Origin: Acidisoma cellulosilyticum
Lineage (GTDB): Bacteria > Pseudomonadota > Alphaproteobacteria > Acetobacterales > Acetobacteraceae
Assembly: GCF_020621385.1 (NCBI RefSeq)
Contig: NZ_JAESVA010000004.1
Location: 458,691-482,690 of the forward strand
Reading direction: 5' to 3'
Length of the DNA stretch: 24,000 nt
A program made the translations under genes and the position numbers. Below are positions 2,252 to 22,112 of the stretch, in pieces (positions within the stretch are counted from its first letter, which is position 1; the number at the start of each line of letters is the position of its first letter). The notes beneath the pieces are model-generated. The model did no database searches. It was not told where the DNA came from and worked only from the letters and a program-made list of their open reading frames with translations.

Positions 2252-2255
2252 GGCG

Positions 2256-2972: not shown

Positions 2973-3861
2973 CGGACGTCTCCCTTCTATCGCGGGCGAT
3001 GTCGAGAAAAGCCTCCACCGCGAGGCCGGGCAATGCCTCTGGCTGGGCCATGCCGAGCGCTTTCCAGACGTCATACCCGTCCTGCGCCTTGCCGAAGCGA
3101 GCGAGCCGGGTGGTCAGACGGTGTTGCTCGGCCTCCAGCACGGTGCGCGTGAGGGGCTTTCCGGCCGCCAGCGCCGCGACGGTCGCCGCACGAAATCCGG
3201 TTGCGTCATCGTCCACGAAATCATCCGCGCCGCCGATCAGGTAACGGTGCTTGCCGCCCATGGTGCGCCAGACGAAAGCGCGGTCGCGACTGTCGAATTC
3301 CTCGATCCCACGATTGGTCTCGATCACTTCCGGCCCACTGACGCTGATCCGTCCTTGTTCCGAGACGATGAGGTGCGAACAGCAGCCAGCGATGATCCCG
3401 CCGCCGCCATAGCAGCCGGCGCGCCCGCCGATGAGGCCGATGACGGAACATCCGGCCGTACGGGCCTCGACGATCGCGCGGATGATTTCGCTGATCGCGA
3501 GTTCGCCTGCATTCGCCTCCTGCAGACGGACGCCACCCGTGTCGAACAGAATGACGACATCCTGACCGAGTTTCCGCGCTGCTCGGAGAAGGCCGGTCAG
3601 TTTGGCGCCATGCACTTCGCCGAAGGCGCCGCCCATGAAGCGGCCTTCCTGGGCAGCAACAAGAACGGATTTACCGCTGAGTTTGGCACGGCCGACGATG
3701 ATACCGTCATCGAACTGCCGGGGCAGATCGAACAGGCCGAGATGCGGCGAGGCTTCACGCGCTTCAGGCCCCAGAAACTCTTCGAAACTGCCGTCATCGA
3801 CCAGCGCCGCCAAGCGCTGCCGGGCCGTCGCTTCGAACCAGCTCACAGCAAGGTTGCTCAT
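2959..3861 (-). CDS. mdcD: Malonate decarboxylase beta subunit MdcD (carboxyltransferase component)
   Basis: 300-aa ORF with acetyl-CoA carboxylase beta-like carboxyltransferase sequence (GGAFGEVHGAKL, FDTGGVRLQEANAGE, GGRAGCYGG). It has an ATGA overlap with the mdcC stop. Confidence 0.92.
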   Translation of the reverse strand: MSNLAVSWFEATARQRLAALVDDGSFEEFLGPEAREASPHLGLFDLPRQFDDGIIVGRAKLSGKSVLVAAQEGRFMGGAFGEVHGAKLTGLLRAARKLGQDVVILFDTGGVRLQEANAGELAISEIIRAIVEARTAGCSVIGLIGGRAGCYGGGGIIAGCCSHLIVSEQGRISVSGPEVIETNRGIEEFDSRDRAFVWRTMGGKHRYLIGGADDFVDDDATGFRAATVAALAAGKPLTRTVLEAEQHRLTTRLARFGKAQDGYDVWKALGMAQPEALPGLAVEAFLDIARDRRETSDDAR

Positions 3862-4172
3862 GCTTCGGGCTCCTCGATCATGCGCAGCCCCTGGGCGAGG
3901 CGCAGCGCCACCATGTCCGGTCTGGCGCCACCATCATTGATGGAGATGCGCAGGCCACCGGCCCCGCGCGCCACAAAATCGCCGATCACGGCTTCCCACA
4001 CAGCGCGGAAGCCATGGGCGGCCGTCGCGATGTCTATCGCACAAATGTCGGTATCCGCTGTCCGCTCGACCAGGACTTCAAGATTGCCCGAGGCGACGAC
4101 GCCGACGATCGCCTGCCGTCTTGCCCCTGCCGCCGGACGTGGAGTTTTGAGGGTAAAGGAGAGTTCTTCCAT
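3858..4172 (-). CDS. mdcC: Malonate decarboxylase delta subunit MdcC (acyl carrier protein)
   Basis: 104 aa. GVVASGNLEVL contains the serine that carries the 2'-(5''-phosphoribosyl)-3'-dephospho-CoA prosthetic group in MdcC/CitD. A perfect GGAGG SD lies 6 nt upstream and overlaps the mdcA TAG. Confidence 0.92.
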   Translation of the reverse strand: MEELSFTLKTPRPAAGARRQAIVGVVASGNLEVLVERTADTDICAIDIATAAHGFRAVWEAVIGDFVARGAGGLRISINDGGARPDMVALRLAQGLRMIEEPEA

Positions 4173-4181
4173 CGGTGCCTC

Positions 4182-5834
4182 CTACCAGTTCCGGAAACGG
4201 CTGGGCGGCTTGTACAGGCCACCTGACGCCAGCATGAGATCCTTGATCGAGCGGGCTGCGAGCAGGCTGCGATCTGCATCCAAGGGATTGATCCCCAGAT
4301 CCTCGGGGCGCTGGATGATCTTCCGCTCCCGCAGACGCTCAACCATCTTGCGGTCCCTTTGCCGCCCGATATCGGTATAGCCGGCGACCCCGCGGATGGC
4401 CTGCTCACGCTCATCCGTGCTGCGGCACAGCAGCAGATTGGCGATGCCTTCCTCGGTGACGATATGGGTCACGTCATCGCCGTAGACCATGACGGGGGCG
4501 AGATCGAGGTTGAGCTTTTGTGCCAGGGCCAAGGCGTCCAGCTGTTCGACGAAGAGCGGGACATTCTTGTCGCCGAACGTCTCGCCAATCTGCACCACCA
4601 GCTTGCGGCCGCGTCGGAGTGGCGCGGGGGAGGTGATATCGGCTTCCGCGCCGGCTTTCAGCCAGGGTTCGCTCGGGTGGCGGCGGCCATGCGGATCAGA
4701 CCCCATATTCGGTGCGCCGCCAAAGCCGGCGATGCGGCTGGTGGTGACGGTCGAACTATGGCCCGCGAGGTCGATCTGCAGGGTCGAGCCGATGAACATG
4801 TCGCAGGCATAAAGCCCCGCCGTCTGGCAGAAGGCGCGGTTGGAACGGAGCGAACCGTCGGGCCCAGTAAAGAAGACATCCGAGCGCGCTGCCACATAGT
4901 CCTCCATGCCGACTTCCGAGCCGAAGGAATGGACCTGCTCGACCCAGCCGGCCTCGATCGCCGGGATGAGCGTCGGATGCGGATTGAGCGCGAAATGGGA
5001 GCAGATCCTGCCCCGCAGGCCGAGCGCCTCGCCATAGGTCGGCAATAGCAGTTCGATCGCCGCCGTGCTGAAGCCGATGCCGTGGTTCAAACGCTTGATG
5101 CCGTAGGGTGCATAAAGACCCTTGATGGCAAGCATGGCGGTCAGGATCTGCGTCTCCGTCACGGCCGCCGGGTCGCGGGTGAACAAAGGCTCGACATAGA
5201 AAGGCTTTTTGGCGTCGACCACGAAATGGACAAGGTCGCCGGGGATATCGACGCGCGGCACGCGATCGACGATCTCACCCACCTGGGCGATGACAAGCCC
5301 GTCCTTGAAGCTCGTCGCTTCCACAACCGTCGGCGTGTCTTCCGTATTGGGTCCCGTATAGAGATTGCCCTCGCGATCGGCAGAGACGGCGGCGATGAGC
5401 GCGACATTGGGCGTCAGGTCGATGAAATAGCGCGCGAAAAGCTCAAGATAGGTATGGACCGCGCCGAGCTCGATCTGCCCGCCGAACAGCATCCGCGCGA
5501 TGCGCGCGGATTGCGGGCCGGAATAGGAAAAATCGAGGCGTCGCGCGATCCCCCTATCAAAAAGGTCAAGATGCTCCGGCAAGACGACGCCCGACTGGAC
5601 CATATGAAGGTCATTTATCCGCGCGGGTGCGGCATTCGCCAAAGCCCTGGCCAGAAGGTCGGCCTGTTTCTGGTTATCGCCTTCGATGCAGACGCGGTCG
5701 CCCGGACGGATAACGGCTTCCAGGAATTCGGTCAGACGTTCGGCTGGGATCATCTTCCCGTCCGCGACCGTCTGACCGGCGGCAATCCGAGCCGCGCGAG
5801 CGGTCTTTTGGTCGTTCCAGTTTTTCATGGCCAT
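4182..5834 (-). CDS. mdcA: Malonate decarboxylase alpha subunit MdcA (acetyl-S-ACP:malonate ACP transferase)
   Basis: ORF 4182-6215 trimmed to ATG 5834 (MAMKNWNDQKTARAARIAAG...; ATG 5828 is an alternative). The roughly 550-aa product shows MdcA-like sequence end to end (CIEGDNQKQADLLA, GFGGAPNMGSDPHGRRH, LYKPPSRFRNW). The 127 upstream codons are Pro/Arg-rich, cross the divergent intergenic region and overlap the regulator gene. Confidence 0.95.
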   Translation of the reverse strand: MAMKNWNDQKTARAARIAAGQTVADGKMIPAERLTEFLEAVIRPGDRVCIEGDNQKQADLLARALANAAPARINDLHMVQSGVVLPEHLDLFDRGIARRLDFSYSGPQSARIARMLFGGQIELGAVHTYLELFARYFIDLTPNVALIAAVSADREGNLYTGPNTEDTPTVVEATSFKDGLVIAQVGEIVDRVPRVDIPGDLVHFVVDAKKPFYVEPLFTRDPAAVTETQILTAMLAIKGLYAPYGIKRLNHGIGFSTAAIELLLPTYGEALGLRGRICSHFALNPHPTLIPAIEAGWVEQVHSFGSEVGMEDYVAARSDVFFTGPDGSLRSNRAFCQTAGLYACDMFIGSTLQIDLAGHSSTVTTSRIAGFGGAPNMGSDPHGRRHPSEPWLKAGAEADITSPAPLRRGRKLVVQIGETFGDKNVPLFVEQLDALALAQKLNLDLAPVMVYGDDVTHIVTEEGIANLLLCRSTDEREQAIRGVAGYTDIGRQRDRKMVERLRERKIIQRPEDLGINPLDADRSLLAARSIKDLMLASGGLYKPPSRFRNW

Positions 5835-5837
5835 TCG

Positions 5838-5941
5838 CTTTGTATGCATAATTGGCTTTCCATGAGCTATATGTATACATGAGCGACTGAAATGTCGATT
5901 GTGTCGTGCATTGCTGTCTTTGTATGGGTGCGATGCATGCA
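5838..5941. promoter_or_regulatory. Divergent mdcA / GntR-regulator control region with palindromes (candidate GntR/FadR-type operator sites)
   Basis: Perfect 10-bp palindrome ATGTATACAT at 5871-5880, flanked by direct repeat CATGAGC (5861-5867 and 5878-5884). 8-bp palindromes TATGCATA (5843-5850) and TGCATGCA (5934-5941). 9-bp direct repeat CTTTGTATG at 5838-5846 and 5918-5926. The T-GT-N-AC-A core fits the general GntR-family operator pattern. Locally AT-rich in a GC-rich window. Confidence 0.4.
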
Positions 5942-5956
5942 AGTGCGGAGGTCGGG

Positions 5957-6643
5957 ATGGTCGATGCGATAGAGGATGGGGCGTCAGAGGATACAGAAGG
6001 CGAACCGCTTCTGCTCTCCGAGCGGATACGCAATGCGTTGACGGACGAGATCGCGGCAGGCGAGTTGTTGCCGGGTGCCGCGCTTGACGAGCAACAGCTC
6101 GCGAACCGCTTCGGCGCCTCGCGCACGCCCGTGCGAGAGGCTTTGCGGCAATTGGCGGTCTCCGGCCTTGTCGACATCCGTCCCCGCCGGGGCGTGGTGG
6201 TGGCCCGCATGACACCGGAGCGCGTGATGGAGATGTTCGAGACTGTGGCGGAGATTGAAGCGCTCTGCGTGCGCCTGGCCACTTATCGCATGACGCCTGC
6301 GGAGCGGGGGCGACTGCTCGAACTGCATGACGAGGCGTCTCGCGCGGCAGAGGCCGGGGATGTGGATGCCTATGACGGCATCAACGCAGCTTTTCATGAG
6401 GCTTTGTATAACGCGACGCATAATGAATTTCTGGCGGAGCAAGCGATCGGCCTGCGCGGCCGGCTGAATGGGTTCCGGCGGACGCAGCTTCGGCACAAAG
6501 ACCGGCTCGACCGTTCGATTGCCGAGCATGGCGCGATCCTCGCGGCTATTGCAGAAGGCGACGGGGATACCGCTTCCCGACGGATGCGCGCCCATATGCT
6601 GAATGCCGCGATCGCATTGCGGCGTTACCTGGAAGATCGCTGA
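5957..6643 (+). CDS. GntR-family (FadR subfamily, FCD domain) transcriptional regulator, MdcY-like candidate regulator of the mdc operon
   Basis: ORF 5906-6643 trimmed to ATG 5957, preceded by GGAGG (5947-5951) at 5-nt spacing. N-terminal wHTH (LANRFGASRTPVREALRQLAVSGLVDIRPRRG) plus a C-terminal FCD-like helical domain. Divergent from mdcA. Confidence 0.85.
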   Translation: MVDAIEDGASEDTEGEPLLLSERIRNALTDEIAAGELLPGAALDEQQLANRFGASRTPVREALRQLAVSGLVDIRPRRGVVVARMTPERVMEMFETVAEIEALCVRLATYRMTPAERGRLLELHDEASRAAEAGDVDAYDGINAAFHEALYNATHNEFLAEQAIGLRGRLNGFRRTQLRHKDRLDRSIAEHGAILAAIAEGDGDTASRRMRAHMLNAAIALRRYLEDR

Positions 6644-6906
6644 TCGATTACTCTGCCAATGCCCGTAGCGATGAAGCCAAGCGATCTCGTCAAACGGCGC
6701 ATCGCGCTTCCTGCTCTTTCGATGGTGTAACGCTCTAGCCGAACAAACTGGCTGAATGGATGGTCGTCCCCCAGGACGATGGTGTCATTGACCGGAGTTC
6801 GGGCAGGTCCGGCTCCCAAAATTAGGTCGTTATTCGCGATTGGTCCGATGGGGGATAGGTTGTCAGATGCGAAGATGCTAATTTGTTCGTCAAGTTGAGG
6901 AACAAA

Positions 6907-8118
6907 ATGACATTCGATAATCCATCCCTTCCGGCGGCACCGATCAACCGCCGCATCTCCCTCCGCACCGTCATGGACGCGCTGCTCCACCAAGGACCGA
7001 TATCGCGGGCGGATATCGCCAAAGTGACGGGATTATCGAAGCAGACCTCGTCCGAAGTGGTCCGCATGCTGGAGGAGGGGGGCTGGATCCAGAGCATCGG
7101 CAATACCAAAGGGGCGGTCGGGCGCAGCGCGGTACTGTACGAATTGCGGCGTGACCGCGGGATGGTCGTGGGCGTCGATCTGGGCAGCAACAAGCTCCAT
7201 GCGGCCCTCGTTAATCTGGCCGGCGATGTGGTGGCGGAGGAGCTTGCCGTGACGGACGCGCAAGGCGGCATGCAGGTATTGCAGCAGGTGGCCGAACTCG
7301 TCACCAAACTCGCCAACCGTTCGAAGCCTGCCGATGCCACGCTTCTGACCGTGGCCGTCGGCTGCCCCGGGGCGCTTGATCCCACCTCAGGGTCTATCCG
7401 CTTTGCACCCAATATTCCCGGCCTCGATAAGATCGATGCTCTGGGCACGCTCAAGAAAGCGCTGAATTGCCCGTCTCTCACGATTGAAAACGACGTCAAT
7501 CTCGGCGTGCTGGGGGAGCAGTGGTATGGGGCCGCCGCAGGATCTGACGACCTTGTCTATGCCGCGCTTGGCGTCGGTGTCGGGCTGGGCCTGCTGGTGA
7601 ACGGCAAGCTTGCGCGGGGCGCGCATGGAGCGGCCGGTGAGATCGCTTTCCTGCCGATCGGTCCCGATCCCTTTTCGCCGGGAAGTCTGTCCACCGGTAC
7701 CTTGGAGCAGGAGATCGGATCACCGGGCATTTTGCGACGTCATGCGGCCGCCGGCGGTGAGGAGAAGTCTGTCCGGGACATCTTCGATGCAGCACTTCAA
7801 GGATCGTCCATTGCCAAGGCGACGATCGATGAGACGGGGCGACTGCTGGCACTTGGCCTTGCCGCCGTCACGGCACTTCTAGATCCCGCCGTCATCGTAC
7901 TCGGCGGAAGCATCGGCGTTCGCCCGGAATTGCTGGAGCCGGTGCGTCGCTATCTTGCGGCCTGCACGCCACTGCCGCCGCCGGTCGAACCCAGCCGGTT
8001 GGGCACGCGCGCTACCTTGATGGGCGCGGCGGCATCCGCGCTTCACCGGGCGCATAATGAGCTATTCGGCGCGCTGGACCTTGGCGTGGCGTTGAGCCTG
8101 CCTAGGCCAAGCCTGTGA
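6907..8118 (+). CDS. ROK-family transcriptional regulator (N-terminal wHTH plus sugar-kinase-like domain), atypical: lacks the zinc-binding His/Cys motif
   Basis: ORF 6883-8118 trimmed to ATG 6907, with GAGG 6 nt upstream. wHTH sequence LLHQGPISRADIAKVTGLSKQTSSEVVRMLEEGGWI. ROK signature-1-like LGVGVGLGLLVNGKLARGAHGAAGE. The 3' end overlaps the convergent ATPase gene by 17 nt. Confidence 0.85.
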   Translation: MTFDNPSLPAAPINRRISLRTVMDALLHQGPISRADIAKVTGLSKQTSSEVVRMLEEGGWIQSIGNTKGAVGRSAVLYELRRDRGMVVGVDLGSNKLHAALVNLAGDVVAEELAVTDAQGGMQVLQQVAELVTKLANRSKPADATLLTVAVGCPGALDPTSGSIRFAPNIPGLDKIDALGTLKKALNCPSLTIENDVNLGVLGEQWYGAAAGSDDLVYAALGVGVGLGLLVNGKLARGAHGAAGEIAFLPIGPDPFSPGSLSTGTLEQEIGSPGILRRHAAAGGEEKSVRDIFDAALQGSSIAKATIDETGRLLALGLAAVTALLDPAVIVLGGSIGVRPELLEPVRRYLAACTPLPPPVEPSRLGTRATLMGAAASALHRAHNELFGALDLGVALSLPRPSL

Positions 8119-8839
8119 TCATGGAGACGATTTCGTTTCGGGTGACCTCGTCGGTCCGACGAATGCCGATCTGCTCCCCATGGCGCAAAACGCAAATGCG
8201 ATCGGCAAGACGAAAGACCTGATCGAGATTGTGGCTGACGAGCAGGATAGAACGCCGTCGGGCGCGAAGGCCCGCGATGATGGACTCGACTCTCATTGTT
8301 TCCGCGACGCCCAGCGCGGCGGTCGGTTCGTCCATCAATACGAGGTTTGACGCCCATCGCGTGGCGCGCGCGATGGCGATGCCTTGCCGCTGACCGCCGG
8401 ACAGGTCGCGAATAACGGTGCCGGCGGAGGGAATGCGGACATCAAGGTCCTTCATCAGGGCCTCGGTCTCCGCGATCATCCGCCGACGGTCCAATCGTCG
8501 TAGCGGCCCCCGCGTCAATTCACGGCCCAGGAACAGGTTCATGTAAACGGTCTGGCTGTCAGCCAAAGCGAGATCCTGATAGACGACCTGGATGCCGTGA
8601 TGCTGGCTTTCCGCAGGGTCCCGGAAGGAAACGGCTTTCCCCTCTATCACCATGCGGCCCGTGGTCATTGGCTGGACGCCGGAAATGATTTTGACCAGGG
8701 TCGATTTGCCGGCGCCGTTGTCGCCCACCAGCGCCACGATCTCCCCCGGCATGATATCCAGCGAGAACTCCTGAATAGCGGTGATCCCGCCGAACATCTT
8801 ATGGACCGACTGCAGGCTCAGCACGGGCTCGCTGGACAT
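8102..8839 (-). CDS. Sugar ABC transporter ATP-binding protein, single-NBD FrcA-like (CUT2 type)
   Basis: 245 aa with Walker A GDNGAGKST, signature LSGGQRQ and Walker B LVLMDEPTAALG. Collinear by eye with rhizobial FrcA. GGAGG SD 6 nt upstream. Confidence 0.9.
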   Translation of the reverse strand: MSSEPVLSLQSVHKMFGGITAIQEFSLDIMPGEIVALVGDNGAGKSTLVKIISGVQPMTTGRMVIEGKAVSFRDPAESQHHGIQVVYQDLALADSQTVYMNLFLGRELTRGPLRRLDRRRMIAETEALMKDLDVRIPSAGTVIRDLSGGQRQGIAIARATRWASNLVLMDEPTAALGVAETMRVESIIAGLRARRRSILLVSHNLDQVFRLADRICVLRHGEQIGIRRTDEVTRNEIVSMITGLA

Positions 8840-8851
8840 CCTGGCCTCCTC

Positions 8852-10048
8852 TCAGCCTGGCCAGTCTATGGGGCGGCCGAAAGCATCATGGATTGTGCCG
8901 ACGCTCGGATTGCCGGATGAAAGGCCGGCAATGCCCACGACATAAGCGCGGGTGACGAAGGCCTGCGGGCGAAATCCGAAGACGACGCTGTCGCCGATCT
9001 GCGGTGCCCTTGGCCCTTCGACATCGATCATGCCGTAATAATCGATGGCGCTTGGCGGTGGAATCTCGACGCCATGCAGGGTCTCGGGACCTGATGCGGG
9101 CTCACGCGCGACCACGACGTTCATGGCATAATCAGGGAAAACCGGATCGACATAAAGGCCGCCGCCGAAGCAATAGGCGCGGCCGGCATGGATGTGCGAA
9201 ACCTCGCTGAGATAGGCGACTGCCGGGCGTTCGGGCAAATCATGGAGAGCGTGCAGCGGCGTCGTTCCGGTCAGACCATGGCCGGGCTCGCATTGCGTGG
9301 CGCCGTGATCGGCCAGACGCTGCAGGAAGATGGCGGAGTTTGTTCCCGGCGCATTGACCTCGATATCCCGTCTTCCGGACTTGGCGAGGGCTTCGACCGC
9401 GCGCGCCAGCGTGCCAAGGTTATGGGTTGTGTCGGCATCGCCCAGTTCCGGGGAGAACAGCAGGGCAGGGAATGTGGTGATGCCGGCGAAGCGCGCGCCA
9501 GGCAGGGCGTCAAGCGCATTCGCGACGTCGACCACCGTCTCGGCCGGAAATCCGCCCTCATGGCCATTGTAGAACCGATCTCCTGGCGCAAACAGACGGG
9601 CGAGCAATGCCTGTTCACGTCCAGCCGCCTGGTTTGCGGCGGCCGCTTCCGCCGCCTTCTCCCGATTGAAGACCGTCCAATAATCCGGCCGCATCGCGGC
9701 GCCGGCGGCGGCCTCCGCCCGGGGCACCTGAACGAGATGCCCGAGATGCCCGAGGCTCAGGCCAGCCCGAACACAGGCGCGAGCGCATTCCATATCGACG
9801 GCGACCGCGTGGGTTATACCGCCGGCAAGGACCGACCGGCAGAAATCGCCGTTGCGACCCATCTGCTTCGTCATCGCGAAGATCTTGAGGCCCGCGCGGT
9901 CGGCTGCCGCCTTGATGATGGACGCGTTCTCCGCCACGGCATCGAGATCGATGACATAGCTATTGGCGGGGATTTGCCCGGCCTGATGGAAGGCGATCGC
10001 CTGTTCGATGAGAGCCGGATTGCGGCGGCGGAGGACATCAAGAAACAT
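8852..10048 (-). CDS. YhfX-like fold-type III (alanine-racemase-fold) PLP-dependent enzyme, function unknown
   Basis: ORF 8852-10114 trimmed to ATG 10048 (MFLDVLRRRNPALIEQAI...), with AGAGGA SD overlapping the permease stop. Collinear with my recollection of E. coli YhfX (MTKQxGRN with the putative PLP lysine, GHLGHLVQ(V/I)P, EPGH(A/G)LTGT(T/I)P, FGFRxQxFVTR). Confidence 0.75.
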   Translation of the reverse strand: MFLDVLRRRNPALIEQAIAFHQAGQIPANSYVIDLDAVAENASIIKAAADRAGLKIFAMTKQMGRNGDFCRSVLAGGITHAVAVDMECARACVRAGLSLGHLGHLVQVPRAEAAAGAAMRPDYWTVFNREKAAEAAAANQAAGREQALLARLFAPGDRFYNGHEGGFPAETVVDVANALDALPGARFAGITTFPALLFSPELGDADTTHNLGTLARAVEALAKSGRRDIEVNAPGTNSAIFLQRLADHGATQCEPGHGLTGTTPLHALHDLPERPAVAYLSEVSHIHAGRAYCFGGGLYVDPVFPDYAMNVVVAREPASGPETLHGVEIPPPSAIDYYGMIDVEGPRAPQIGDSVVFGFRPQAFVTRAYVVGIAGLSSGNPSVGTIHDAFGRPIDWPG

Positions 10049-10058
10049 GGATTTTCCT

Positions 10059-11042
10059 CTAGCTTCGCTTTTCGCGCAGCGTTGTAGCGACGGCGACGAG
10101 AATGATAAGGCCACGGACCATCATCTGTTCCGCAACCGTCAGGCCCATCAGGATAAGCCCGTTGTTGAGCATGCCCATCAGCAGCGATCCGATCAGCGCG
10201 CCCACGACACTGCCAGTGCCGCCGTTCAATCTTGTGCCGCCGACAATGACGGCCGCGATGACCGTCAGGAGGTCGGAATCGCCGAGCGTATAGCGGGCGC
10301 CGTATAGCCGGCCGGCATAGAGCAAGCCCGCGAGCGCGGCACCCATCGCGCTGATGACGAGAACGCCAAGGCGCAGGCGGTCGACGCCGATACCGGCGGC
10401 GCGTGCCGCGCGATGATTGTCGCCGGTTGCCAGAACATGCGCGCCGAACTTGCTCTCACGGAAGACAAAATGCCCGGTGATGGTTGCCGCTATCGTCCAG
10501 ATCACCAGGGACGGAACGCCGAACAGGCTTCCCGCGCCGAACATGCCTGTAAAGGTCGGGTCGGTCACCGGAATGGAGCGAAGATTGGTCAGCCATCGCC
10601 CCACGCCGGCCAGCAGCCCCATGGATGCCAGGGTCACCAGAAAGGACGGGAGCCTGAGATAGGCGACAAGCGCACCGTTCATCAAACCGATCGCCGCGCC
10701 GGCCGCCAGACCGGCGACGACGCCCAGTTCCCAGACATGGTTCTGCATGGTGACAGCCGCGACGAGCGCCGAAATCGCGACGACCGAGCCGATGGAGAGG
10801 TCGATCTCACCAGCCGTGAGGGCAAAGACCATGCCGACCGCCATGACGGTGATGGGCGCGGTCTCCTGCACGATATTGACGAGGTTGGACCGCGTCAGGA
10901 AACCGTCACCCTGCAATGCCAGGGCAAAAAACGCGAAGATGGCCAGAAATCCGACATAGACGATGTAGCGGCTGGTATCGAGCCTGGCCAATCTGCCGAG
11001 CATGACCCTGGGGCCTTTCTGTTGCGTCACGTCTGACGTCAC
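10059..11042 (-). CDS. Sugar ABC transporter permease (RbsC/FrcC-like, BPD_transp_2 type)
   Basis: 327 aa, multi-pass hydrophobic, with GEIDLSIGS and GGTxLxGGxG motifs typical of CUT2 permeases. GTG start 10 nt after the SBP stop. ATG 11003 is an alternative. Confidence 0.9.
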   Translation of the reverse strand: MTSDVTQQKGPRVMLGRLARLDTSRYIVYVGFLAIFAFFALALQGDGFLTRSNLVNIVQETAPITVMAVGMVFALTAGEIDLSIGSVVAISALVAAVTMQNHVWELGVVAGLAAGAAIGLMNGALVAYLRLPSFLVTLASMGLLAGVGRWLTNLRSIPVTDPTFTGMFGAGSLFGVPSLVIWTIAATITGHFVFRESKFGAHVLATGDNHRAARAAGIGVDRLRLGVLVISAMGAALAGLLYAGRLYGARYTLGDSDLLTVIAAVIVGGTRLNGGTGSVVGALIGSLLMGMLNNGLILMGLTVAEQMMVRGLIILVAVATTLREKRS

Positions 11043-11052
11043 GACCGCGATC

Positions 11053-12129
11053 CTATTTAAGCGCGTCGATGACCGATTTCGGTGCCTCGCGATGCAGCGA
11101 CGCCTCGTAGCCGGCCAGCAGATTGGCTTTGGTGATGGTCATGGCCGGCGCGACAATAAAGCCGGGGCAAGGCTTGCCGAGCAGGCCATAGGCCGCGGCG
11201 GTTGCCATGGTACGCCCGAGTTCATAGGTCGCGTCGGCGACGATCGCAGCCACATTGCCGTTCTGGGCCATGTCGAGCGCGATGGGTTCGGACAGATCCA
11301 GCGTCACGATCTTTGTATGCTTGTTTCCAGCGGCACGCAGAGCGGCCAGAACACCCTCCGCAGGCTCGGCCCAGGTGACATAGATACCGTCGAGACCGGG
11401 CGTCTTCGTCAGCATGGCATTGGCGATGTCTTCGGCATTGGCCGGATCGGAAATGCCCTGCTGCTCGTTGATGGTGATATTCTTGTATTGATCCTCGATG
11501 GTGGATTTGAAGGCCTGATCGCGCTGGTTGGTGACGTAATATTGGGCATCATGGAAAATATAGCCGACCTTGCCCTTGTCGCCGATTGCGCTGGCAAGCG
11601 CATCGGCCGCGCGACTGCCCATGGCATGCAGGTCGTCGGTCACGATCGCGACGTAATCCTTGCCGGCCTTGTAGCCGTTGGGAACATTGGACAGAAAGAC
11701 CAGCTTCGTGCCGTCCGCCAGGGCCGGACGGAAGGCCGCGGCCGAGCCGACGGGATCGAGCGGCAGCGACAGGATGACGCTCGGCCGCCGTGCGGTGATC
11801 GTCTGCACGTCATCCATCTGCTTCGCCGAGTCAAAGCCTGCATCCGTCGTCGCTATGACCTTGATGCCGAGCTTGGCGAATGTATCGGTCGCACCGGCGG
11901 TAACGCCGTTGGTGAAATCGGACGTGGTGTGCCAAACGAAAGCGGCCGTGTAATGACCAGCCTTAAGCTTCGCGATCTCAACCGGCGTGAGAGACAGGGC
12001 GCTTGACGGTGTGGCGCTTTCGCCATGCGGTCCGACAGTCGCGGGGGCAGCGGCATAGACCTCAGTCGTGTAAGCAAGACCGAGGAGAATGGCGGCGGTC
12101 GCGAGAAGTTTTGAACTCAGTCTTGTCAT
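11053..12129 (-). CDS. Periplasmic sugar-type ABC substrate-binding protein (PBP type I, RbsB-like)
   Basis: ORF 11053-12225 trimmed to ATG 12129 (MTRLSSKLLATAAILLGLAYTTEVYA/AAP), with AGGAG SD 7 nt upstream. It has a signal peptide and a periplasmic-binding-protein-1-like body. Confidence 0.88.
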   Translation of the reverse strand: MTRLSSKLLATAAILLGLAYTTEVYAAAPATVGPHGESATPSSALSLTPVEIAKLKAGHYTAAFVWHTTSDFTNGVTAGATDTFAKLGIKVIATTDAGFDSAKQMDDVQTITARRPSVILSLPLDPVGSAAAFRPALADGTKLVFLSNVPNGYKAGKDYVAIVTDDLHAMGSRAADALASAIGDKGKVGYIFHDAQYYVTNQRDQAFKSTIEDQYKNITINEQQGISDPANAEDIANAMLTKTPGLDGIYVTWAEPAEGVLAALRAAGNKHTKIVTLDLSEPIALDMAQNGNVAAIVADATYELGRTMATAAAYGLLGKPCPGFIVAPAMTITKANLLAGYEASLHREAPKSVIDALK

Positions 12130-12163
12130 CCTATCGCTCCTGTTGATTGGTCCAGCCCCTGCG

Positions 12164-13411
12164 TCAGGCTGTCGTCTGGCCGTAGCTCGCCAAAAAAATC
12201 GCGAGGGCCAAAATGCCGTCTGCATAGGCGCCCAGGCTCACACGCTCTTCCAATGTATGGCAATGGACGAAATCGCCCGGCGAGAAATAGACGACAGGCG
12301 CGCCGCGCGCGGACAGGAACGGGCCTTCCGACCAGCCGGCGCAGGGGCCGATGCGCCCAGCCGCTGGTACCACGCTGCGGATGGCATCGATCAGCATGCC
12401 AATCGCAGGCACAGCCGCGTCCGTGACAAGCGGCGTGCCGCCGATACTGCTGTCGCGTCCCGCTGGATAGCCGAAGGTGACCGTGATGAGATCGTCCGTG
12501 ATCGCGTTTCGCACGACAGTTTCAAGCCGCTGCCGCTCCACCTCCGCGTCCTCGCCCGGGATCAGCTTGCGGATGAGACTGATGCGACAATCGCCGGGCA
12601 CGGCAATATAGCCGCCGGCATTGACGCCGGTGACGACCAGGAAGCCGGGCCCGATCATCGGATCCGACCCTGCGGCGCGGATCTCATCCGATAGCTGCCA
12701 TAGCGCCGTCAGGATGGCATTGCCGGCCTTCAGCGCGTCGACGCCTTGCTCAGGCAAGCCGAAATAGGCTGACTTGCCATTGACCGTTATGTCGCAGATG
12801 AAAAACCCCATATGGGCGGTATAGACATCGAGGCTCGACGGTTCGCCGTAGATGGCGAGGTCGGGTATCGGCCATAGGCCGGTATCATAGACCGGCATCA
12901 GCGCCTTCATGCCCGCACTGACGCCGGACCCTGGCTCCCCACTCTCCTCATCGCCGACGAAGGCCAGTTGCAGGTTGCAGCTTGGCGCGATGCCCGCGCG
13001 GTTGAGAAGGTCGATGGCCGAGAGTGCGGTCGCAATCCCGATCTTCATATCCGCCGTTCCGCGTCCCCAGATCTCCCCATCAACCTCGGTAGCCGCAAAG
13101 GCGTTCGCGCGATCGGTTCCAGCCCATCGCTCCTGCCACCCGCGGACATGCACGGTATCCGTGTGACCCACGAGGAGTACCGTGGGCCGGTCCGACGCGA
13201 TCGAGCGCCTTGCGCGCACATTGAAGCGACCTGTGGCGAAGGCCCATCGCGTGACCTCATCCAGTCCCAGGGTCTGAAGGTCGACTTCCAGCAGCGCCGC
13301 GATGTCATCCTCTTGCCCGGTGACGCTCGGGCAATGCACAAGCCGCTTCAGCCGGTCGATGGCGGCATCCGGATCAAGGGCCGCCTTGAGGCGATCTCTC
13401 AACATGGTCAT
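12164..13411 (-). CDS. M20-family metallo-amidohydrolase (ArgE/DapE/aminoacylase-like)
   Basis: ORF 12164-13444 trimmed to ATG 13411, with GGAGAG upstream. ATG 13405 and the annotated 13444 are alternatives. M20 metal/catalytic motifs LLVGHTDTV, GRGTADMK and VGDEESG are present. Confidence 0.85.
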   Translation of the reverse strand: MTMLRDRLKAALDPDAAIDRLKRLVHCPSVTGQEDDIAALLEVDLQTLGLDEVTRWAFATGRFNVRARRSIASDRPTVLLVGHTDTVHVRGWQERWAGTDRANAFAATEVDGEIWGRGTADMKIGIATALSAIDLLNRAGIAPSCNLQLAFVGDEESGEPGSGVSAGMKALMPVYDTGLWPIPDLAIYGEPSSLDVYTAHMGFFICDITVNGKSAYFGLPEQGVDALKAGNAILTALWQLSDEIRAAGSDPMIGPGFLVVTGVNAGGYIAVPGDCRISLIRKLIPGEDAEVERQRLETVVRNAITDDLITVTFGYPAGRDSSIGGTPLVTDAAVPAIGMLIDAIRSVVPAAGRIGPCAGWSEGPFLSARGAPVVYFSPGDFVHCHTLEERVSLGAYADGILALAIFLASYGQTTA

Positions 13412-13480
13412 CGAACACTCTCCAGCGGGCGGAAGCGACGACACAGGCGCCGCTTCCTTGGTAGGCGAGGATGGGCCGAA

Positions 13481-14896
13481 CTACTCGAAAGCGCGACCCA
13501 TCCCGGTCATGACGGATTTACGGAATCGCGCCAGCCAGAGTGAATAGAGGACACCGAAGACGATCCATATGCCGACGACATAAGGTACGGCCGTCATGGG
13601 GGCGGTGCCACCACCGACCGGAAGGGTCGACATCAGCACGCCCTTCAGCGGCAATAGAAGCAGGAGGGTCGCGATCAGGGGCACAAGCGCATGCTTGATC
13701 CAGCTGAATTCCGCGCCGCGGCGGCGATAGAAGGCAAACAGGCTGGCGCAGATCACGATATAGACGAGCACGATCGCAAGCCCCAGCACGGTACCCGCCC
13801 AGCCATAGACAGTCATCGGATCCCAGGTGAAGCCGAGAATCAGGGTGAGGGCGAGGGAGAGCGCCATATAAAGAACGGCGGCTTTCGCGGGCACCTGGCG
13901 CCCTGAAACCTCCCCAAGCACCGGTGGCAGAACGCGCTCGCGGCCCATGGCGTAAAGGATGCGGATGACGGAGTTGAAACCGGCCAGAAGATTGGCGAAG
14001 ATCGAGTTCAGCACCACGAGCTGGACGACAATGCCGGCGCCGTGACCCCAAAAGGCGTGAAACAACGGGTCCCAGGGATTGCCGCCTTTGTTGATGGCTC
14101 CCAGCACGTCTTTTACATGCGACGGCCCGTAGCCGGTGACGGCCGCCAAGGCGGACACAAGGTAGAAGATACCGATACCGCCCACGCACAGCATCAGCGC
14201 GCGAGGGATATTATGCTTGGGGTCGCGGGTTTCTTCACCCATGGTCGCGGCACTTTCGAAGCCGACGAACATCAGGATGAACCACAGCACTGCGGTGCCG
14301 ATGCCATTCAGGCTGCCGGATGCTGGTGCGCTGGCCGGATTGAACGTCGTCAGGGCAATGCCTTGCCCGCCGCCATGAATAAGAACGGTCAGAAAAAACA
14401 GCATCATCACGACAATTTCGACGAGCAGCATGACGATCGCGACTTTGACCGAGACCCCGATACCGCGACAAGCGAGAAACAGGATGAGCGCTGCCACGAT
14501 CACGGAATAGACAGCCCAGGACAAGCTGATGCCAGTTATCTGGGCCAAGAACTGCGCCAGAAAATAGCCGATTGCGGCCAGCAGCATCGGCGCCAGCATC
14601 GCATAGCCGCCGACCAGCAGCCAGCCCGTGACAAATCCGACCTTGGGACCCAGGCCGCGCACGGCAAAGGTATAGGCAAATCCGGCGGTCGGAATTTGCT
14701 TTGCGAATTGCGCGATGACGAAGGCGATAAAGAAAGTGGCAACCATGGCCAGGATCAGGGCAAAGCCGATGGCATTGCCGGCATTCTGGATGCCAAGCCC
14801 GGTATTGAAATAGACCGAGGTGGCCGGCCCCATGAAAGCGCAGGTCGCGGCAATGGCCCCGAACAGGCTGATAGCATTTTTGCGCAACTCAGCCAA
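13481..14896 (-). CDS. APC-superfamily amino acid (or amine) permease
   Basis: 471 aa, about 12 hydrophobic segments, and FVGFESAATMGEETRDPKHNIPRAL, which is typical of APC permeases. The start codon is TTG (checked in the sequence) with a G-rich SD-like GGGGGTG upstream. The next in-frame ATG is at codon 22. Confidence 0.88.
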   Translation of the reverse strand: MAELRKNAISLFGAIAATCAFMGPATSVYFNTGLGIQNAGNAIGFALILAMVATFFIAFVIAQFAKQIPTAGFAYTFAVRGLGPKVGFVTGWLLVGGYAMLAPMLLAAIGYFLAQFLAQITGISLSWAVYSVIVAALILFLACRGIGVSVKVAIVMLLVEIVVMMLFFLTVLIHGGGQGIALTTFNPASAPASGSLNGIGTAVLWFILMFVGFESAATMGEETRDPKHNIPRALMLCVGGIGIFYLVSALAAVTGYGPSHVKDVLGAINKGGNPWDPLFHAFWGHGAGIVVQLVVLNSIFANLLAGFNSVIRILYAMGRERVLPPVLGEVSGRQVPAKAAVLYMALSLALTLILGFTWDPMTVYGWAGTVLGLAIVLVYIVICASLFAFYRRRGAEFSWIKHALVPLIATLLLLLPLKGVLMSTLPVGGGTAPMTAVPYVVGIWIVFGVLYSLWLARFRKSVMTGMGRAFE

Positions 14897-14908
14897 GGAA
14901 CACCCCCA

Positions 14909-14959
14909 TTAAGTTCGTCACCCTGACGAATTAACAGTGATTTGAATTCCAAACGCAAG
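14909..14959 (-). promoter_or_regulatory. Putative sigma70-type promoter plus 26-bp near-palindromic operator in front of the APC/M20/ABC/PLP operon
   Basis: On the minus strand: CTTGCG (14959-14954), 18 nt, GTTAAT (14935-14930). Inverted repeat TTAATTCGTCA-GGG-TGACGAA(C)TTAA at 14934-14909. Its core is a perfect 7-bp arm with a 3-nt spacer (14914-14930 on the plus strand), and the outer TTAA arms are offset by one extra base. It sits 13-38 nt upstream of the TTG start. Confidence 0.35.
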
Positions 14960-15147: not shown

Positions 15148-16062
15148 CTAGTCCTGACGGTTCGGATGAAGGACAGGACGCGCGGCATCATCGCTTCGCG
15201 AGGCGGCAGCCCGAAACTCCGTCGGGCTTGTTTCGAAGTGTTTACGAAACGCCTTGGCAAAATAATTCGGATCCGCATATCCGCAGGCTGAGGAAATATC
15301 CTTCACACTCAGACTGGCATTCGCGAGAAGGCGGCTCGCCAGGCGCATCCGCTCCCGACAGATGAATTCCGCCGGGGCCAGTCCCGTTTCCGCTGCGAAC
15401 AAACGCGAGAAATGCGCGCGGCTATACCCGGCAACGGCAGCCAAGTCGCTCACATTCAAGGGCTGGTCAAGATTTGTGCGCACATGCCGACAAACACGTT
15501 CGACATCATCGCTGTTCGCTTCGGCGCGGATCGCGTGATGACGACCGAGCACGTCATCGACCAAGCACATCAGCACCGCGTAAGCGATGGCGGATAGGGA
15601 GCCGACAGCATCCCGATCAGCCGCCCGGTCGCCAAGTTCCAGACAGAAGCCTGCCAGACGATCGATGGTGGCGTGATCGAGGGTCAGCACCGGGCCGGCG
15701 GCGCTTTGAATAGCGTAGAGCAGCCGCAATGCCTCCTGGCCGGTCAGCCCGATCCAGAAGAAGGACCAGGTTTCCCCGGCCTCAAGCCAATATCTGTGCG
15801 TGTGCGGGATGGTGACCAGCATGGTCTGGCCGGGCGCGACGCGATGGAATTGGCGCCCGAAGCGCAATCGCCCGCAGCCGCTGATCGTATGTTGTAATAC
15901 GGCGAAAGGGAGCGGCCCGCGTTTCCGCCCGTCGAAACTATAGCCCGGCCCCACGGCCTCTTCGAGGCCGACGGTCGTCGGCATCACATGCAGCCGGCCG
16001 CGCCGCCGTGGTGCCGAGACGGTGGTCCGGAAGGCGCCTCGCTCGATGAGTGCGTTCAGCAC
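15148..16062 (-). CDS. AraC-family transcriptional regulator (N-terminal cupin-like sensor, C-terminal double HTH)
   Basis: ORF 15148-16119. I favour GTG 16062, preceded by GAGGGG at 7 nt and by the onset of high GC3. ATG 16107 and TTG 16119 are alternatives. C-terminal AraC signature: LAAVAGYSRAHFSRLFAAETGLAPAEF...ISSACGYADPNYFAKAFRKHFETSPTEFR. Confidence 0.85.
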   Translation of the reverse strand: MLNALIERGAFRTTVSAPRRRGRLHVMPTTVGLEEAVGPGYSFDGRKRGPLPFAVLQHTISGCGRLRFGRQFHRVAPGQTMLVTIPHTHRYWLEAGETWSFFWIGLTGQEALRLLYAIQSAAGPVLTLDHATIDRLAGFCLELGDRAADRDAVGSLSAIAYAVLMCLVDDVLGRHHAIRAEANSDDVERVCRHVRTNLDQPLNVSDLAAVAGYSRAHFSRLFAAETGLAPAEFICRERMRLASRLLANASLSVKDISSACGYADPNYFAKAFRKHFETSPTEFRAAASRSDDAARPVLHPNRQD

Positions 16063-16175
16063 AATTTTACCCCTCGAAGCACAGCTTTCTTCCTGCGGAA
16101 CGGGCATGATGTGTGTCAAGTTTGTCTTGCTGACAAGGCGCCCGAAGAGGCTGGCCGAACAAAGAGGGAGGGCTC

Positions 16176-17672
16176 ATGAGCCAAGCATTCAAAATCGCCA
16201 TCGTCGGCGCCGGCAGCGTGGGCTTCACGCGCACCTTGGTGCGAGACATTCTGAGCGTTCCGGAACTCCAGGAGGTGGAATTCGCGCTGACGGATCTCAA
16301 CGCTCACAATCTCGATATGATCAAGCAAATCCTGGACCGTATCGTCGCGGTCAGCGGTCTTCCCGCCCGCATTACCGCGACGACCGAGCGCGCGCGGGCG
16401 CTGGAGGGAGCACGCTATGTCATCTGTTGTGTCCGCCAAGGCGGGTTGGAGGCGTTCAAAGACGATATCGGTATTCCACTGAAATACGGCGTCGACCAAT
16501 GCGTGGGTGATACCATCTGCGCGGGCGGTATTATGTATGGCCAGCGTACCATTCCGGCCATTCTGGATTTCTGCAGGGACATCAAGGCCGAAGCTGAAAC
16601 CGGCGCGCGCCTGCTCAATTATGCTAACCCCATGGCGATGAATACCTGGGCGGCGATCGAGCATGGCGGTGTCGATACCATCGGCCTATGCCACGGTGTC
16701 CAGCACGGTTGGCGGCAGATCGCCGAAGTATTGGGTGCGGACAAGCCCGAGGATGTCGAATACATCTGCACGGGGATCAATCATCAAACCTGGTACACGG
16801 ATATCCGGTTCAAGGGCCGACCGATCGGGCGGGAGGAATTGCTGGCCGGTTTCGAAAGGCACCCTGTCTATTCGCAGCAGGAAAAGCTGCGTATCGATGT
16901 GCTGCGCCGCTTCGGCGTCTACTCCACGGAGTCGAACGGTCATCTGTCGGAATACTTGCCCTGGTATCGCAAGCGTCCCGAAGAAACCCGCAAATGGATT
17001 GACCTCTCGCAATGGATTCACGGCGAGACAGGCGGCTATCTCCGCATCTGCACGGAGGGTCGTAATTGGTTCGAGGAGGAATTTCCCCGCTATCTTCAGG
17101 AAGCCGAGATCGCGGTCGATCCGCAGCGGCGGACGGACGAGCATGCGAGCTATATTATCGAGGCGCTGGAGACCGGGCGCGTCTATCGGGGCCATTTCAA
17201 CGTTCCGAACAAGGGGCTGGTCGTCAACCTGCCGGCGGATGCCATTGTCGAAACGCCCGGTTTCGTCGACCGTTTCGGGCTCAACATGGTCGCCGGGCTC
17301 AAACTGCCCGATGCCTGCGCCGTGCCCTGCATAGCGTCCATCAACGTGCAGCGCCTTGCGGTCAAGGCCGCCGTGACCGGTGATATCGAGACGCTGAAGC
17401 TCGCCATGCTGAATGACCCGCTGGTCGGTGCCGTTTGCACGCCTGAGGAGGTCTGGCAGATGACCGATGAGATGGTCGTGGCGCAGGCCCGTTGGCTGCC
17501 GCAATATGCGGCGGCAGTGCCGGACGCGAAGCGGCGCTTGTCCGGGGCGCTTATCCCGACGCGGGACTGGGACGGTGCGGCCCGATTGCCGACACGCTCC
17601 GTCGCGCAGATGCGCATCGACCGCGCTCAGAAAGCGGAAGGTATGACGCCGGACAAGCAGATCGTGGCGTAA
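16176..17672 (+). CDS. Glycoside hydrolase family 4 enzyme (NAD+/Mn2+-dependent alpha-galactosidase/alpha-glucosidase, MelA-like)
   Basis: 498 aa. N-terminal Rossmann KIAIVGAGSVGF, plus NYANPMAMNTWA, GLCHGVQ and CTGINHQTW, collinear with E. coli MelA as I recall it. GGAGGG SD upstream. Confidence 0.9.
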   Translation: MSQAFKIAIVGAGSVGFTRTLVRDILSVPELQEVEFALTDLNAHNLDMIKQILDRIVAVSGLPARITATTERARALEGARYVICCVRQGGLEAFKDDIGIPLKYGVDQCVGDTICAGGIMYGQRTIPAILDFCRDIKAEAETGARLLNYANPMAMNTWAAIEHGGVDTIGLCHGVQHGWRQIAEVLGADKPEDVEYICTGINHQTWYTDIRFKGRPIGREELLAGFERHPVYSQQEKLRIDVLRRFGVYSTESNGHLSEYLPWYRKRPEETRKWIDLSQWIHGETGGYLRICTEGRNWFEEEFPRYLQEAEIAVDPQRRTDEHASYIIEALETGRVYRGHFNVPNKGLVVNLPADAIVETPGFVDRFGLNMVAGLKLPDACAVPCIASINVQRLAVKAAVTGDIETLKLAMLNDPLVGAVCTPEEVWQMTDEMVVAQARWLPQYAAAVPDAKRRLSGALIPTRDWDGAARLPTRSVAQMRIDRAQKAEGMTPDKQIVA

Positions 17673-17766
17673 ACGGCAAGGCGCTCGGCAGGGCGCCTCC
17701 GCGCTGGCCGATGAGGAGGCGTTAGACCTCCGGGCCTCGACCATAAATGGGGAAAAGGAAACCTTC

Positions 17767-19035: not shown

Positions 19036-19042
19036 GCGCAAC

Positions 19043-20029: not shown

Positions 20030-20030
20030 C

Positions 20031-20876: not shown

Positions 20877-20921
20877 TTCCCGATCATCGTGGGACGCCCA
20901 TCCGGAGAGCGGCGTGGTCGT

Positions 20922-21992: not shown

Positions 21993-22011
21993 CGCGCAAC
22001 CTTAGCTTTGT

Positions 22012-22056: not shown

Positions 22057-22112
22057 GACTAGTCTCCGCCCAAGGGCAGAAGAGACGGACGCAAAGGCGA
22101 GGGGACGATAGG

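Follow-up and report, generated by a model that had tools for sequence, protein, structure and literature searches.

The ong cluster of Pseudoalteromonas prydzensis, which acts on the oxidised chitin monomer N-acetyl-D-glucosaminate (GlcNAc1A), comprises OngB, OngC, OngD, KdgK, OngIT, and OngR (PMC9537276; PMC12017989). It places a metal-dependent N-deacetylase ahead of a fold-type III pyridoxal phosphate (PLP) enzyme and has a transporter and a repressor of its own; a similar arrangement is proposed here for a six-gene operon of Acidisoma cellulosilyticum, located on a stretch of 24,000 nucleotides of contig NZ_JAESVA010000004.1 (positions 458,691 to 482,690; hereafter, the window). The PLP enzyme of this operon is of the same family as YhfX from the Escherichia coli cluster yhfZYUT-php-yhfS-yhfX-yhfW and has identical conserved active-site residues. 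YhfX is an orphan family of thousands of proteins, among them that of E. coli, for which there is a crystal structure (PDB 4KBX), and no functional study of YhfX, its E. coli neighbours yhfS/T/U/W, or COG3457 was found in the literature searched. The E. coli yhf cluster lies immediately beside frlABCDR. In its architecture the operon in the window resembles familiar catabolic operons, but its enzyme pair is without characterised precedent. It may be a ROK-controlled operon for a hexosamine-type amino sugar, taken up in both N-acylated and free-amine forms, a reading to which we give a probability of roughly 0.45.

Operon layout and conserved core

The operon genes, the sites upstream of and within the operon, and the convergent regulator gene are as follows.

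14910–14934, minus strand: operator-like imperfect inverted repeat (TTAATTCGT-N8-CGAACTTA), 14–38 nt upstream of the APC start
13481–14896, minus strand: APC-family permease (471 aa; TTG start, as in the NCBI protein; Pfam AA_permease and AA_permease_2)
13431–13457, no strand assigned: hairpin with 10-bp arms in the 69-nt APC–M20 spacer (inverted-repeat search)
12164–13411, minus strand: M20 (ArgE/DapE-like) metallohydrolase (415 aa; ATG start; Pfam Peptidase_M20 and M20_dimer)
11053–12129, minus strand: periplasmic substrate-binding protein (SBP) of CUT2 type with a Sec signal peptide (Pfam Peripla_BP_4)
10059–11042, minus strand: CUT2 ATP-binding cassette (ABC) permease, single copy (Pfam BPD_transp_2)
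8852–10048, minus strand: YhfX-family fold-type III PLP enzyme (398 aa; Pfam Ala_racemase_N and YhfX-like_C)
8102–8839, minus strand: single-domain (half-size) CUT2-type ABC ATPase (245 aa; one ABC_tran domain)
6883–8118, plus strand: ROK-family regulator with a winged helix-turn-helix and a ROK domain (Pfam ROK and HTH_24/MarR_2)

The first-pass annotation, made from the letters and a list of open reading frames (ORFs), described six same-strand genes pointing to a single transcription unit, and the spacers that it gave (69, 34, 10, 10, and 12 nt in the order APC, M20, SBP, permease, YhfX, ATPase) are borne out by the sequence and the ORF list. The Shine-Dalgarno motifs that it placed at the ends of upstream genes are present before the YhfX and ATPase genes, where GAGGA and GAGGAGG overlap or abut the preceding stop codons. 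The YhfX gene is placed between the permease and ATPase genes, and its translation is identical to the NCBI protein over all 398 aa; the APC permease is likewise 100% identical to an NCBI protein of this Acidisoma species. The M20 gene has an alternative GTG start at 13444. No intergenic terminator-like site was found in the window, and the 11 terminator-like matches, compared with 7.1 ± 3.0 in shuffled sequences, all fall within coding sequence. The hairpin in the APC–M20 spacer was rejected as a terminator or attenuator, having no U-tract and a fold z-score of −0.38 against shuffles. The six genes are thus supported as a transcription-unit-like array. None of them encodes a kinase, isomerase, dehydrogenase, or aldolase. 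The gene list omitted the convergent ROK regulator, which is part of the system, and the unit had been extended to 14959, which is 63 nt past the APC start and covers a 5' region holding the operator-like site. The ROK and ATPase genes overlap at their 3' ends by 17 nt (8102–8118), with no space for a terminator between them.

None of the six proteins reached an NCBIfam equivalog, and YhfX matched no NCBIfam model. A nucleotide search of a plasmid collection returned only short ABC-ATPase matches. The earlier statement that the gene set belongs to no known pathway also stands, as no database name or paper assigning one was found; indeed, no annotation, curated model, or paper was found that gives a function to the gene set or to YhfX.

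In a genome scan with one genome per species, 265 YhfX relatives were found, and the best 80 loci (YhfX 61–72% identity) were analyzed by tblastn, clustering, and phmmer, together with 80 further loci from metagenomes. A colinear, single-strand operon consisting of a ROK regulator, M20, one to three SBPs, permease, YhfX, and ATPase is present in approximately 58–63 of the 80 genome loci, spread over Hyphomicrobiales, Rhodobacterales, and Rhodospirillales, and recurs in 16 of the 80 metagenome loci. Most of the remaining genome loci are truncated contigs. The suspected co-conservation of M20, the CUT2 ABC genes, and YhfX was therefore found. Carriers include Mesorhizobium, Hoeflea, Kaistia, Devosia, Labrys, Nitratireductor, Thalassospira, Paracoccaceae, and a sponge symbiont, and the copies on the Ruegeria sp. 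TM1040 megaplasmid and on Aminobacter aminovorans pAA01 bear generic product names only. Apart from the core itself, no conserved genes surround it among the 80 loci; the window neighbours encoding GH4, AraC, and GntR proteins were rejected as operon members, being present in none of them.

The window ROK protein is 42–51% identical to the product of the ROK gene that heads the operon in these 58–63 loci and is the ortholog of that first gene, here inverted downstream. It gave NagC- and Mlc-like NCBIfam matches below the cut-offs. By eye, the usual Cys-rich zinc motif of the ROK protein (6883–8118) is seemingly absent in the window translation, where the region reads GAHGAAGEIAFLPIGPDPFSPG and contains no Cys. 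An imperfect inverted repeat is enriched upstream of ROK-led operons; 27 of the 80 genome loci have its core, AATTCGT-N8-CGAACT, and in all of them it lies immediately ahead of the ROK start. The 25-bp window copy (TTAATTCGTCAGGGTGACGAACTTA) is the sole match in the 24 kb at up to three mismatches, with 0.01 expected by chance, and this repeat at 14910–14934 is a probable ROK binding site and operon promoter region. The window thus has the attributes of a ROK (NagC/Mlc-type) regulon, namely a winged helix-turn-helix plus ROK domain and a conserved palindromic putative operator. In the window, the APC gene occupies the place held by the ROK gene elsewhere, behind the same presumptive operator, which argues that the six genes are one ROK-controlled unit.

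Of the membership proposed earlier, M20, the ABC genes, and YhfX stand, while the APC permease is not a conserved member, since it is absent from all 80 related alphaproteobacterial loci. APC orthologs (46–67% identity) occur in other phyla, in Cohnella, Ktedonobacteria-like, and unassigned metagenome contigs, and lie directly beside a YhfX gene in seven of the eight contexts examined; in the eighth, from Alicyclobacillus dauci, a truncated APC is fused to a YhfX C-domain remnant. Two more YhfX–APC pairs were found in the metagenome scan (L095 and L119). Because its orthologs almost always adjoin YhfX in other phyla, the APC gene is not a stray, and because it pairs with YhfX elsewhere and is absent from the core loci, the window is a hybrid of APC–YhfX and M20–ABC–YhfX modules. 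No other sampled locus combines both.

Two observations concern the rearrangement of these modules. A local duplication of the module is indicated in L015 and L026 by an additional, divergently oriented YhfX gene ahead of the ROK gene, together with an extra ROK gene and a third SBP. The gene of A. dauci (L087, CP104064.1, 10001–11254), annotated as "amino acid permease", has a faint N-terminal YhfX-like_C match and covers 68% of APC; it looks like a decayed YhfX–APC pair beside an IS605-family transposase gene.

YhfX, its neighbours, and its partner proteins

The best functional clue comes from the genes neighbouring YhfX, and this context points to a hexosamine-type amino sugar. A gene resembling glucosamine 6-phosphate (GlcN-6-P) deaminases follows the ATPase gene within 136 nt on the same strand in 17 of the 80 genome loci (16 double-SIS proteins and one NagB-I), and none occurs elsewhere in the approximately 1.6 Mb of flanks. 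The SIS proteins of the two loci scanned score 307–318 bits to the NagB-II model (cut-off 430); that of L026 scores 307 bits to NagB-II versus 29 bits to the FrlB model and is 22% identical to FrlB. Among the metagenome loci, the slot after the ATPase holds SIS in 6 of 80 and NagB-I in 3 of 80 (L137, L142, and L146), and the two NagB-I proteins scanned (L137 and L142) reach 225–231 bits against a cut-off of 236.9. That one slot can be filled by either of two unrelated folds, both known for this activity, indicates selection for the activity.

The APC-type clusters of other phyla are similarly furnished. Their arrangements include ROK kinase–ROK kinase–YhfX–APC–NagB (L088), NagB-I beside YhfX–APC (L175), ROK regulator–ROK kinase–YhfX–APC (L176), SIS–PfkB–YhfX–APC–YhfX (L092–L094), and YhfX–APC–YhfX–ROK kinase (L091). 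The NagB of L088 exceeds the nagB cut-off of 236.9 with 289 bits, and an E. coli-type yhf cluster (L159) carries a NagB-I of 299 bits. Sugar kinases of two families, ROK and PfkB, accompany YhfX. No hydrolase was found in the APC-type clusters, which points to one small molecule bearing a free amine as their substrate. In other clusters the hydrolase beside YhfX varies (M20, CE4-like, amidase, PTE/Php, or alpha/beta-hydrolase), and such replaceability fits a deacylation needed only for a blocked amine. With deaminase, kinase, and hydrolase all non-orthologously replaced around a constant YhfX, the context suggests a pathway of deacylation, YhfX reaction, phosphorylation, and deamination, with the order of the middle steps left free. 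Both ROK regulators and Peripla_BP_4 SBPs belong to families that sense sugars. Neither lactate dehydrogenase, NanA, nor NagA is consistently associated with the operon loci.

Several YhfX loci differ in other ways. Two diverged YhfX paralogs flank the APC gene in L091–L094 (Ktedonobacteria-like and Cohnella contigs), those of L093 being 42% and 38% identical to the window YhfX, and such pairing may reflect a heteromer or two PLP reactions in succession. In L001–L004 and L011 (Lichenihabitans and Acetobacteraceae metagenome-assembled genomes), which contain the closest YhfX proteins of the genome scan (70–72% identity), and in L115 and L145, the operon reads GATase1_like (PF07090)–SBP–permease–ATPase–CE4-like–PfkB–YhfX. 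The operons of L001–L004 and L011 have neither M20 nor ROK; the CE4-like protein of this operon type (496 aa) is a weak match, and a LacI regulator lies upstream in L004, where checked. In L169 (454–6270), the order is MFS transporter–YhfX–AP_endonuc_2–GH4–LacI, the AP_endonuc_2 protein being a xylose-isomerase-like TIM barrel of the FrlC family. A GH4 gene is also found near the window operon, but in a separate, non-conserved unit.

The window YhfX-like protein contains PF01168 and PF21279 domains and matches E. coli YhfX (4KBX) with E = 3e-76 and 39% identity; the only other PDB sequence match of its profile is D-3-hydroxyaspartate aldolase (E = 0.018). Foldseek comparison of its AlphaFold (AF2) model (pLDDT 89) returned 4KBX with a TM-score of 0.90, followed by D-threonine aldolases (0.66–0.70; 0.64–0.70 with beta-hydroxyaspartate aldolase included) and alanine racemases (0.58–0.63). 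Across ABC-type, APC-type, and E. coli-type members, the PLP lysine K61 (in MTKQ) is invariant, as are H101, H104, R151, E254, E273, E282, H285, D336, R360, and R367 (all ≥97%), and Y337 is nearly so. Since the active-site residues are invariant across cluster types, a single chemistry throughout the family is suggested. Of these residues, H101, H104, E282, and H285 suggest that the enzyme may depend on a metal. A racemase of the OrnR or Alr type was rejected by motif alignment. The second acid/base is Tyr265' in Alr, and in the fold-type III racemase OrnR it is Cys164 (PMC13397332); the position matching Cys164 is Ala195 in the window, Ala in 52 of 61 window-type alphaproteobacterial sequences, and Cys, Ala, or Leu in the other cluster types. 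In the same alignment, the position of the racemase Arg that contacts the pyridine nitrogen is Glu254 of an invariant EPG motif.

The importer is of sugar type. The SBP (PF13407, E = 9e-36) has the N-terminal signal peptide MTRLSSKLLATAAILLGLAYTTEVYA, weak NCBIfam matches to RbsB, AlsB, and a rhizopine SBP, and weak structure matches to ribose, arabinose, and allose SBPs; its gene is duplicated in tandem in at least 32 related loci. The permease (PF02653, E = 3e-39), which is 61–79% identical in related loci, has GguB, AraH, and RbsC as its best NCBIfam matches, all under the cut-offs. The ATPase is not a fused double-domain CUT2 protein of approximately 500 aa; it aligns to residues 1–240 of the XylG/RbsA/YtfR models, and this half-size form is conserved in related loci at 63–76% identity.

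The M20 protein, a proposed N-deacylase, retains the HTD, GRGTADMK, and GDEESG motifs that had been read from it. It scores 153 bits to TIGR01910 (cut-off 217.6) and 66–106 bits to the ArgE/DapE equivalogs (cut-offs 284–460), and its best relatives are DapE and ArgE (E ~1e-17), the best in the PDB being DapE (E = 4e-17). Residues H83, D85, D121, E155, E156, E190, and H385, mapped on DapE alignments, are invariant in 36 orthologs, and so neither the metal and catalytic residues of M20 nor the PLP lysine of YhfX have been lost, as could have been the case. The lid-domain His (oxyanion hole) and Asn with which DapE holds its substrate align to Tyr216 (invariant) and Ala270. The subfamily also has several invariant Trp residues. 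Judged by its sequence, the M20 protein is a distinct subfamily, and its substitutions are compatible with, and no proof of, a sugar-bearing substrate.

Proposed pathway and alternative readings

In the proposed amino-sugar pathway, a neutral N-acyl sugar would be imported by the CUT2 ABC system (SBP, permease homodimer, and half-size ATPase homodimer), and M20 would remove the acyl group to expose a primary amine. The deacylated, charged form could be imported directly by the APC permease, bypassing M20. YhfX would then form an aldimine with that amine and carry out chemistry at the amine-bearing carbon, either C2 epimerisation, as from mannosamine to glucosamine, or beta-elimination with re-addition, such as the removal of the lactyl ether from muramic acid in the manner of the MurQ elimination. 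The product would be glucosamine or its 6-phosphate, which a kinase and a GlcN-6-P deaminase, encoded elsewhere in the genome and in the operon itself in many relatives, would convert to fructose-6-phosphate and ammonia. The ROK protein would repress the operon at the 25-bp repeat before APC until the sugar is present. Candidate substrates may be N-acetylmannosamine/mannosamine and N-acetylmuramic acid/muramic acid. Gene order, domains, catalytic residues, co-conservation, the operator motif, and the recurrent link to GlcN-6-P deaminases and sugar kinases are observed, whereas the kind of substrate, the direction in which the pathway runs, the separate roles of the two importers, and the reaction of YhfX, which may be an epimerisation, an elimination, or a cleavage, are inferred. 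The order that had been suggested from the letters, with the hydrolase acting first and the PLP enzyme on its product, and a substrate with both sugar-like and amine- or amino-acid-like character, fit the comparative data.

A number of points weigh against this pathway. The window contains neither the kinase nor the deaminase, approximately three-quarters of the related loci lack both, and the link to GlcN-6-P is thus a minority feature. To our knowledge, there is no PLP-dependent amino-sugar epimerase or ether lyase and no M20 carbohydrate deacetylase, and M20 enzymes of the ArgE/DapE type normally take N-acyl amino acids with a free carboxylate. The literature searched contained no PLP-dependent hexosamine epimerase and nothing functional on muramic acid with PLP or on the combination of ROK, M20, and a racemase. 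The closest YhfX structures after 4KBX act on beta-hydroxy-D-amino acids, which suits a glucosaminate substrate equally or better, and the PfkB kinases in some variants could be 2-keto-3-deoxygluconate (KDG) kinases. The identity of the substrate is wholly inferred.

The suggestion of an amino-sugar acid survives from the first-pass annotation as the main, though unlikely, alternative. The substrate would be GlcNAc1A or a related 2-acylamino-2-deoxy-aldonate, which M20 would deacetylate to glucosaminate (APC could also import the latter), and YhfX would act as a fold-type III dehydratase/ammonia-lyase yielding KDG for the Entner-Doudoroff pathway through KDG kinase and 2-keto-3-deoxy-6-phosphogluconate (KDPG) aldolase. 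Such a substrate is both an N-acyl amino acid, as suits M20 and APC, and sugar-like, as suits the CUT2 SBP and ROK; the nearest YhfX structures after 4KBX are the D-threonine and beta-hydroxyaspartate aldolases; and PfkB genes lie beside YhfX, as CE4-like–PfkB–YhfX in the seven loci with that operon (L001–L004, L011, L115, and L145) and as PfkB–M20–YhfX in L162 and L163. The characterised ong pathway has the same logic (PMC9537276). On the other hand, this route has no role for the recurrent GlcN-6-P deaminases of two folds or for the ROK kinases, no RidA (OngD) or KDPG aldolase is associated, and the PfkB proteins are best matched as ribokinase, IolC, or ribose-1-P-kinase-like rather than as KDG kinase. 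The M20 protein is not an OngB homolog, and YhfX is not an OngC homolog in any close sense. M20 enzymes are typically L-specific, whereas glucosaminate is D-configured at C2.

The other options raised earlier, a glycated amino acid (Amadori or Heyns compound) or an opine-like conjugate, are not favoured and appear quite improbable. Here the importers would take the sugar and amino-acid halves, a kinase and SIS deglycase would work as in frl, and the N-acyl or amino-acid part would be left to M20 and YhfX. The APC, PfkB, SIS, and YhfX genes of L092–L094 do mirror the frlA/frlD/frlB content, the E. coli yhf cluster adjoins frlABCDR, and one YhfX locus (L169) has the AP_endonuc_2 (FrlC-family) gene. 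Orthology to FrlA was nevertheless rejected, as the window APC matches it at 24% over 160 aa, and orthology to FrlB was rejected for the SIS proteins, which score as NagB-II, GlmD, AgaS, or GlmS-like; the same slot can hold NagB-I, which has no known deglycase activity. An N-alpha-glycated amino acid would also be without a free amine for PLP, and the loci have no associated gene for an amadoriase, oxidoreductase, or opine dehydrogenase. A last reading, very improbable, has amino-acid chemistry alone served by a borrowed transporter: M20 would cleave a dipeptide or an N-acyl amino acid, and the amino acid released would be racemised by YhfX. It would agree with the best M20 matches being to ArgE/DapE-family models and with the alanine-racemase N-domain of YhfX, and fold type III includes racemases for ornithine and lysine (PMC13397332). 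Against it, the window protein has Ala at the OrnR Cys position, which varies across the family, Glu (EPG) stands where Alr and OrnR have the pyridine-nitrogen Arg, and the transporter, regulator, and attached kinases and deaminases are all of sugar type.

The amino-sugar pathway has consequences beyond the window. In its broadest form, the YhfX family would be PLP enzymes that convert amino sugars to glucosamine (as hexosamine C2-epimerase or muramic-acid ether lyase), M20 would be a new family of carbohydrate de-N-acylases, the whole would be a widespread unseen entry route to GlcN-6-P, and the E. coli yhf cluster would gain a function; this generalisation is possible, though doubtful, and we know of no PLP enzyme with either reaction. 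Much of the organic nitrogen in soil and sea is in amino sugars. If the proposed pathway is true, the operon would represent a new route of amino-sugar carbon and nitrogen turnover in these environments, accompanied by a new kind of PLP reaction acting on sugars and by a family of carbohydrate deacylases that is also new; if the route through glucosaminate is true, it would amount to the recently discovered oxidative-chitin pathway built from non-orthologous enzymes in another bacterial class. In either case, the window and its relatives give YhfX a testable context of regulator, importer, deacylase, and YhfX, recurrently ending in a GlcN-6-P deaminase, and the module is found in culturable bacteria that lend themselves to use as models, namely Ruegeria sp. 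TM1040 (TM1040_RS01745–01770), Sinorhizobium fredii NGR234 (pNGR234b), Aminobacter, and Mesorhizobium.

Other genes in the window and comparison with known systems

The operon lies between two other groups of genes. A malonate decarboxylase gene set is encoded on the minus strand (786–6215), and a separate sugar locus (15148–23135) has no genes co-conserved with the YhfX operon.

786–1625, minus strand: CitG/MdcB-like protein
1622–2458, minus strand: MdcG
2959–3861, minus strand: malonate decarboxylase carboxyltransferase subunit
3858–4172, minus strand: acyl-carrier MdcC (Pfam PF06857, there described as "Malonate decarboxylase delta subunit (MdcD)")
4182–6215, minus strand: alpha subunit MdcA (Pfam match from residue 132)
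15148–16119, minus strand: AraC regulator
16176–17672: GH4 alpha-galactosidase (545 bits, above the cut-off)
17767–20876: CUT1 ABC binding protein and two permeases
20922–21992, minus strand: LacI regulator
22113–23135: Gfo/Idh/MocA oxidoreductase

Because its Pfam match begins at residue 132, the true start of MdcA is probably near 5822. A GntR/FCD regulator gene (5906–6643, plus strand), with the GntR domain from residue 37, is divergent from mdc and, as listed, starts within the over-extended ORF of MdcA; it probably encodes the regulator of the malonate genes and is outside the operon system.

Among known systems, the importer resembles FrcBCA, the fructose importer of Sinorhizobium, which likewise consists of one Peripla_BP_4 SBP, one BPD_transp_2 permease, and one ATPase of approximately 250 aa. 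In the window, however, an enzyme gene stands between the permease and ATPase genes, and the SBP is weakly similar to characterised sugar SBPs. Catabolism of N-acetylglucosamine (GlcNAc; NagC/ROK, NagK, NagA, and NagB or NagB-II) shares with the window system a ROK-type regulator, a sugar importer, N-deacylation, and, in the relatives, a deaminase. It differs in that NagA acts on the 6-phosphate, whereas the window M20 would act on an unphosphorylated sugar; no NagA was found, and the additional PLP enzyme is without counterpart in GlcNAc catabolism.

The frlABCDR system of E. coli is similar in joining an APC permease to sugar enzymes, and APC, PfkB, and SIS genes meet in the YhfX clusters of other phyla. 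Unlike frl, the window has neither kinase nor deglycase and no FrlA or FrlB orthology, and the attached SIS and NagB proteins resemble amino-sugar-phosphate deaminases. The E. coli-type yhf clusters also have a hydrolase partner, and NagB-I or PfkB is attached in some metagenomic versions. The E. coli genes for the YhfT/U transporter, Php, YhfS, YhfW, and a PRD protein are absent from the window, which has M20, the CUT2 ABC system, APC, and ROK instead. Compared with ong, the window PLP enzyme is of the YhfX family with a different C-terminal domain, an ABC system and an APC permease take the place of the SSS transporter, and neither RidA nor KdgK is encoded in the operon. The window has no member of any of the ong families (OngB-type deacetylase of D-aminoacylase fold, OngC-clade PLP deaminase, RidA, KdgK, or SSS transporter) and shares with ong only the fold type of the PLP enzyme, although PfkB appears in some variants of the operon. 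The GlcN-6-P deaminases of operons related to that of the window, in turn, would have no place in the ong route.

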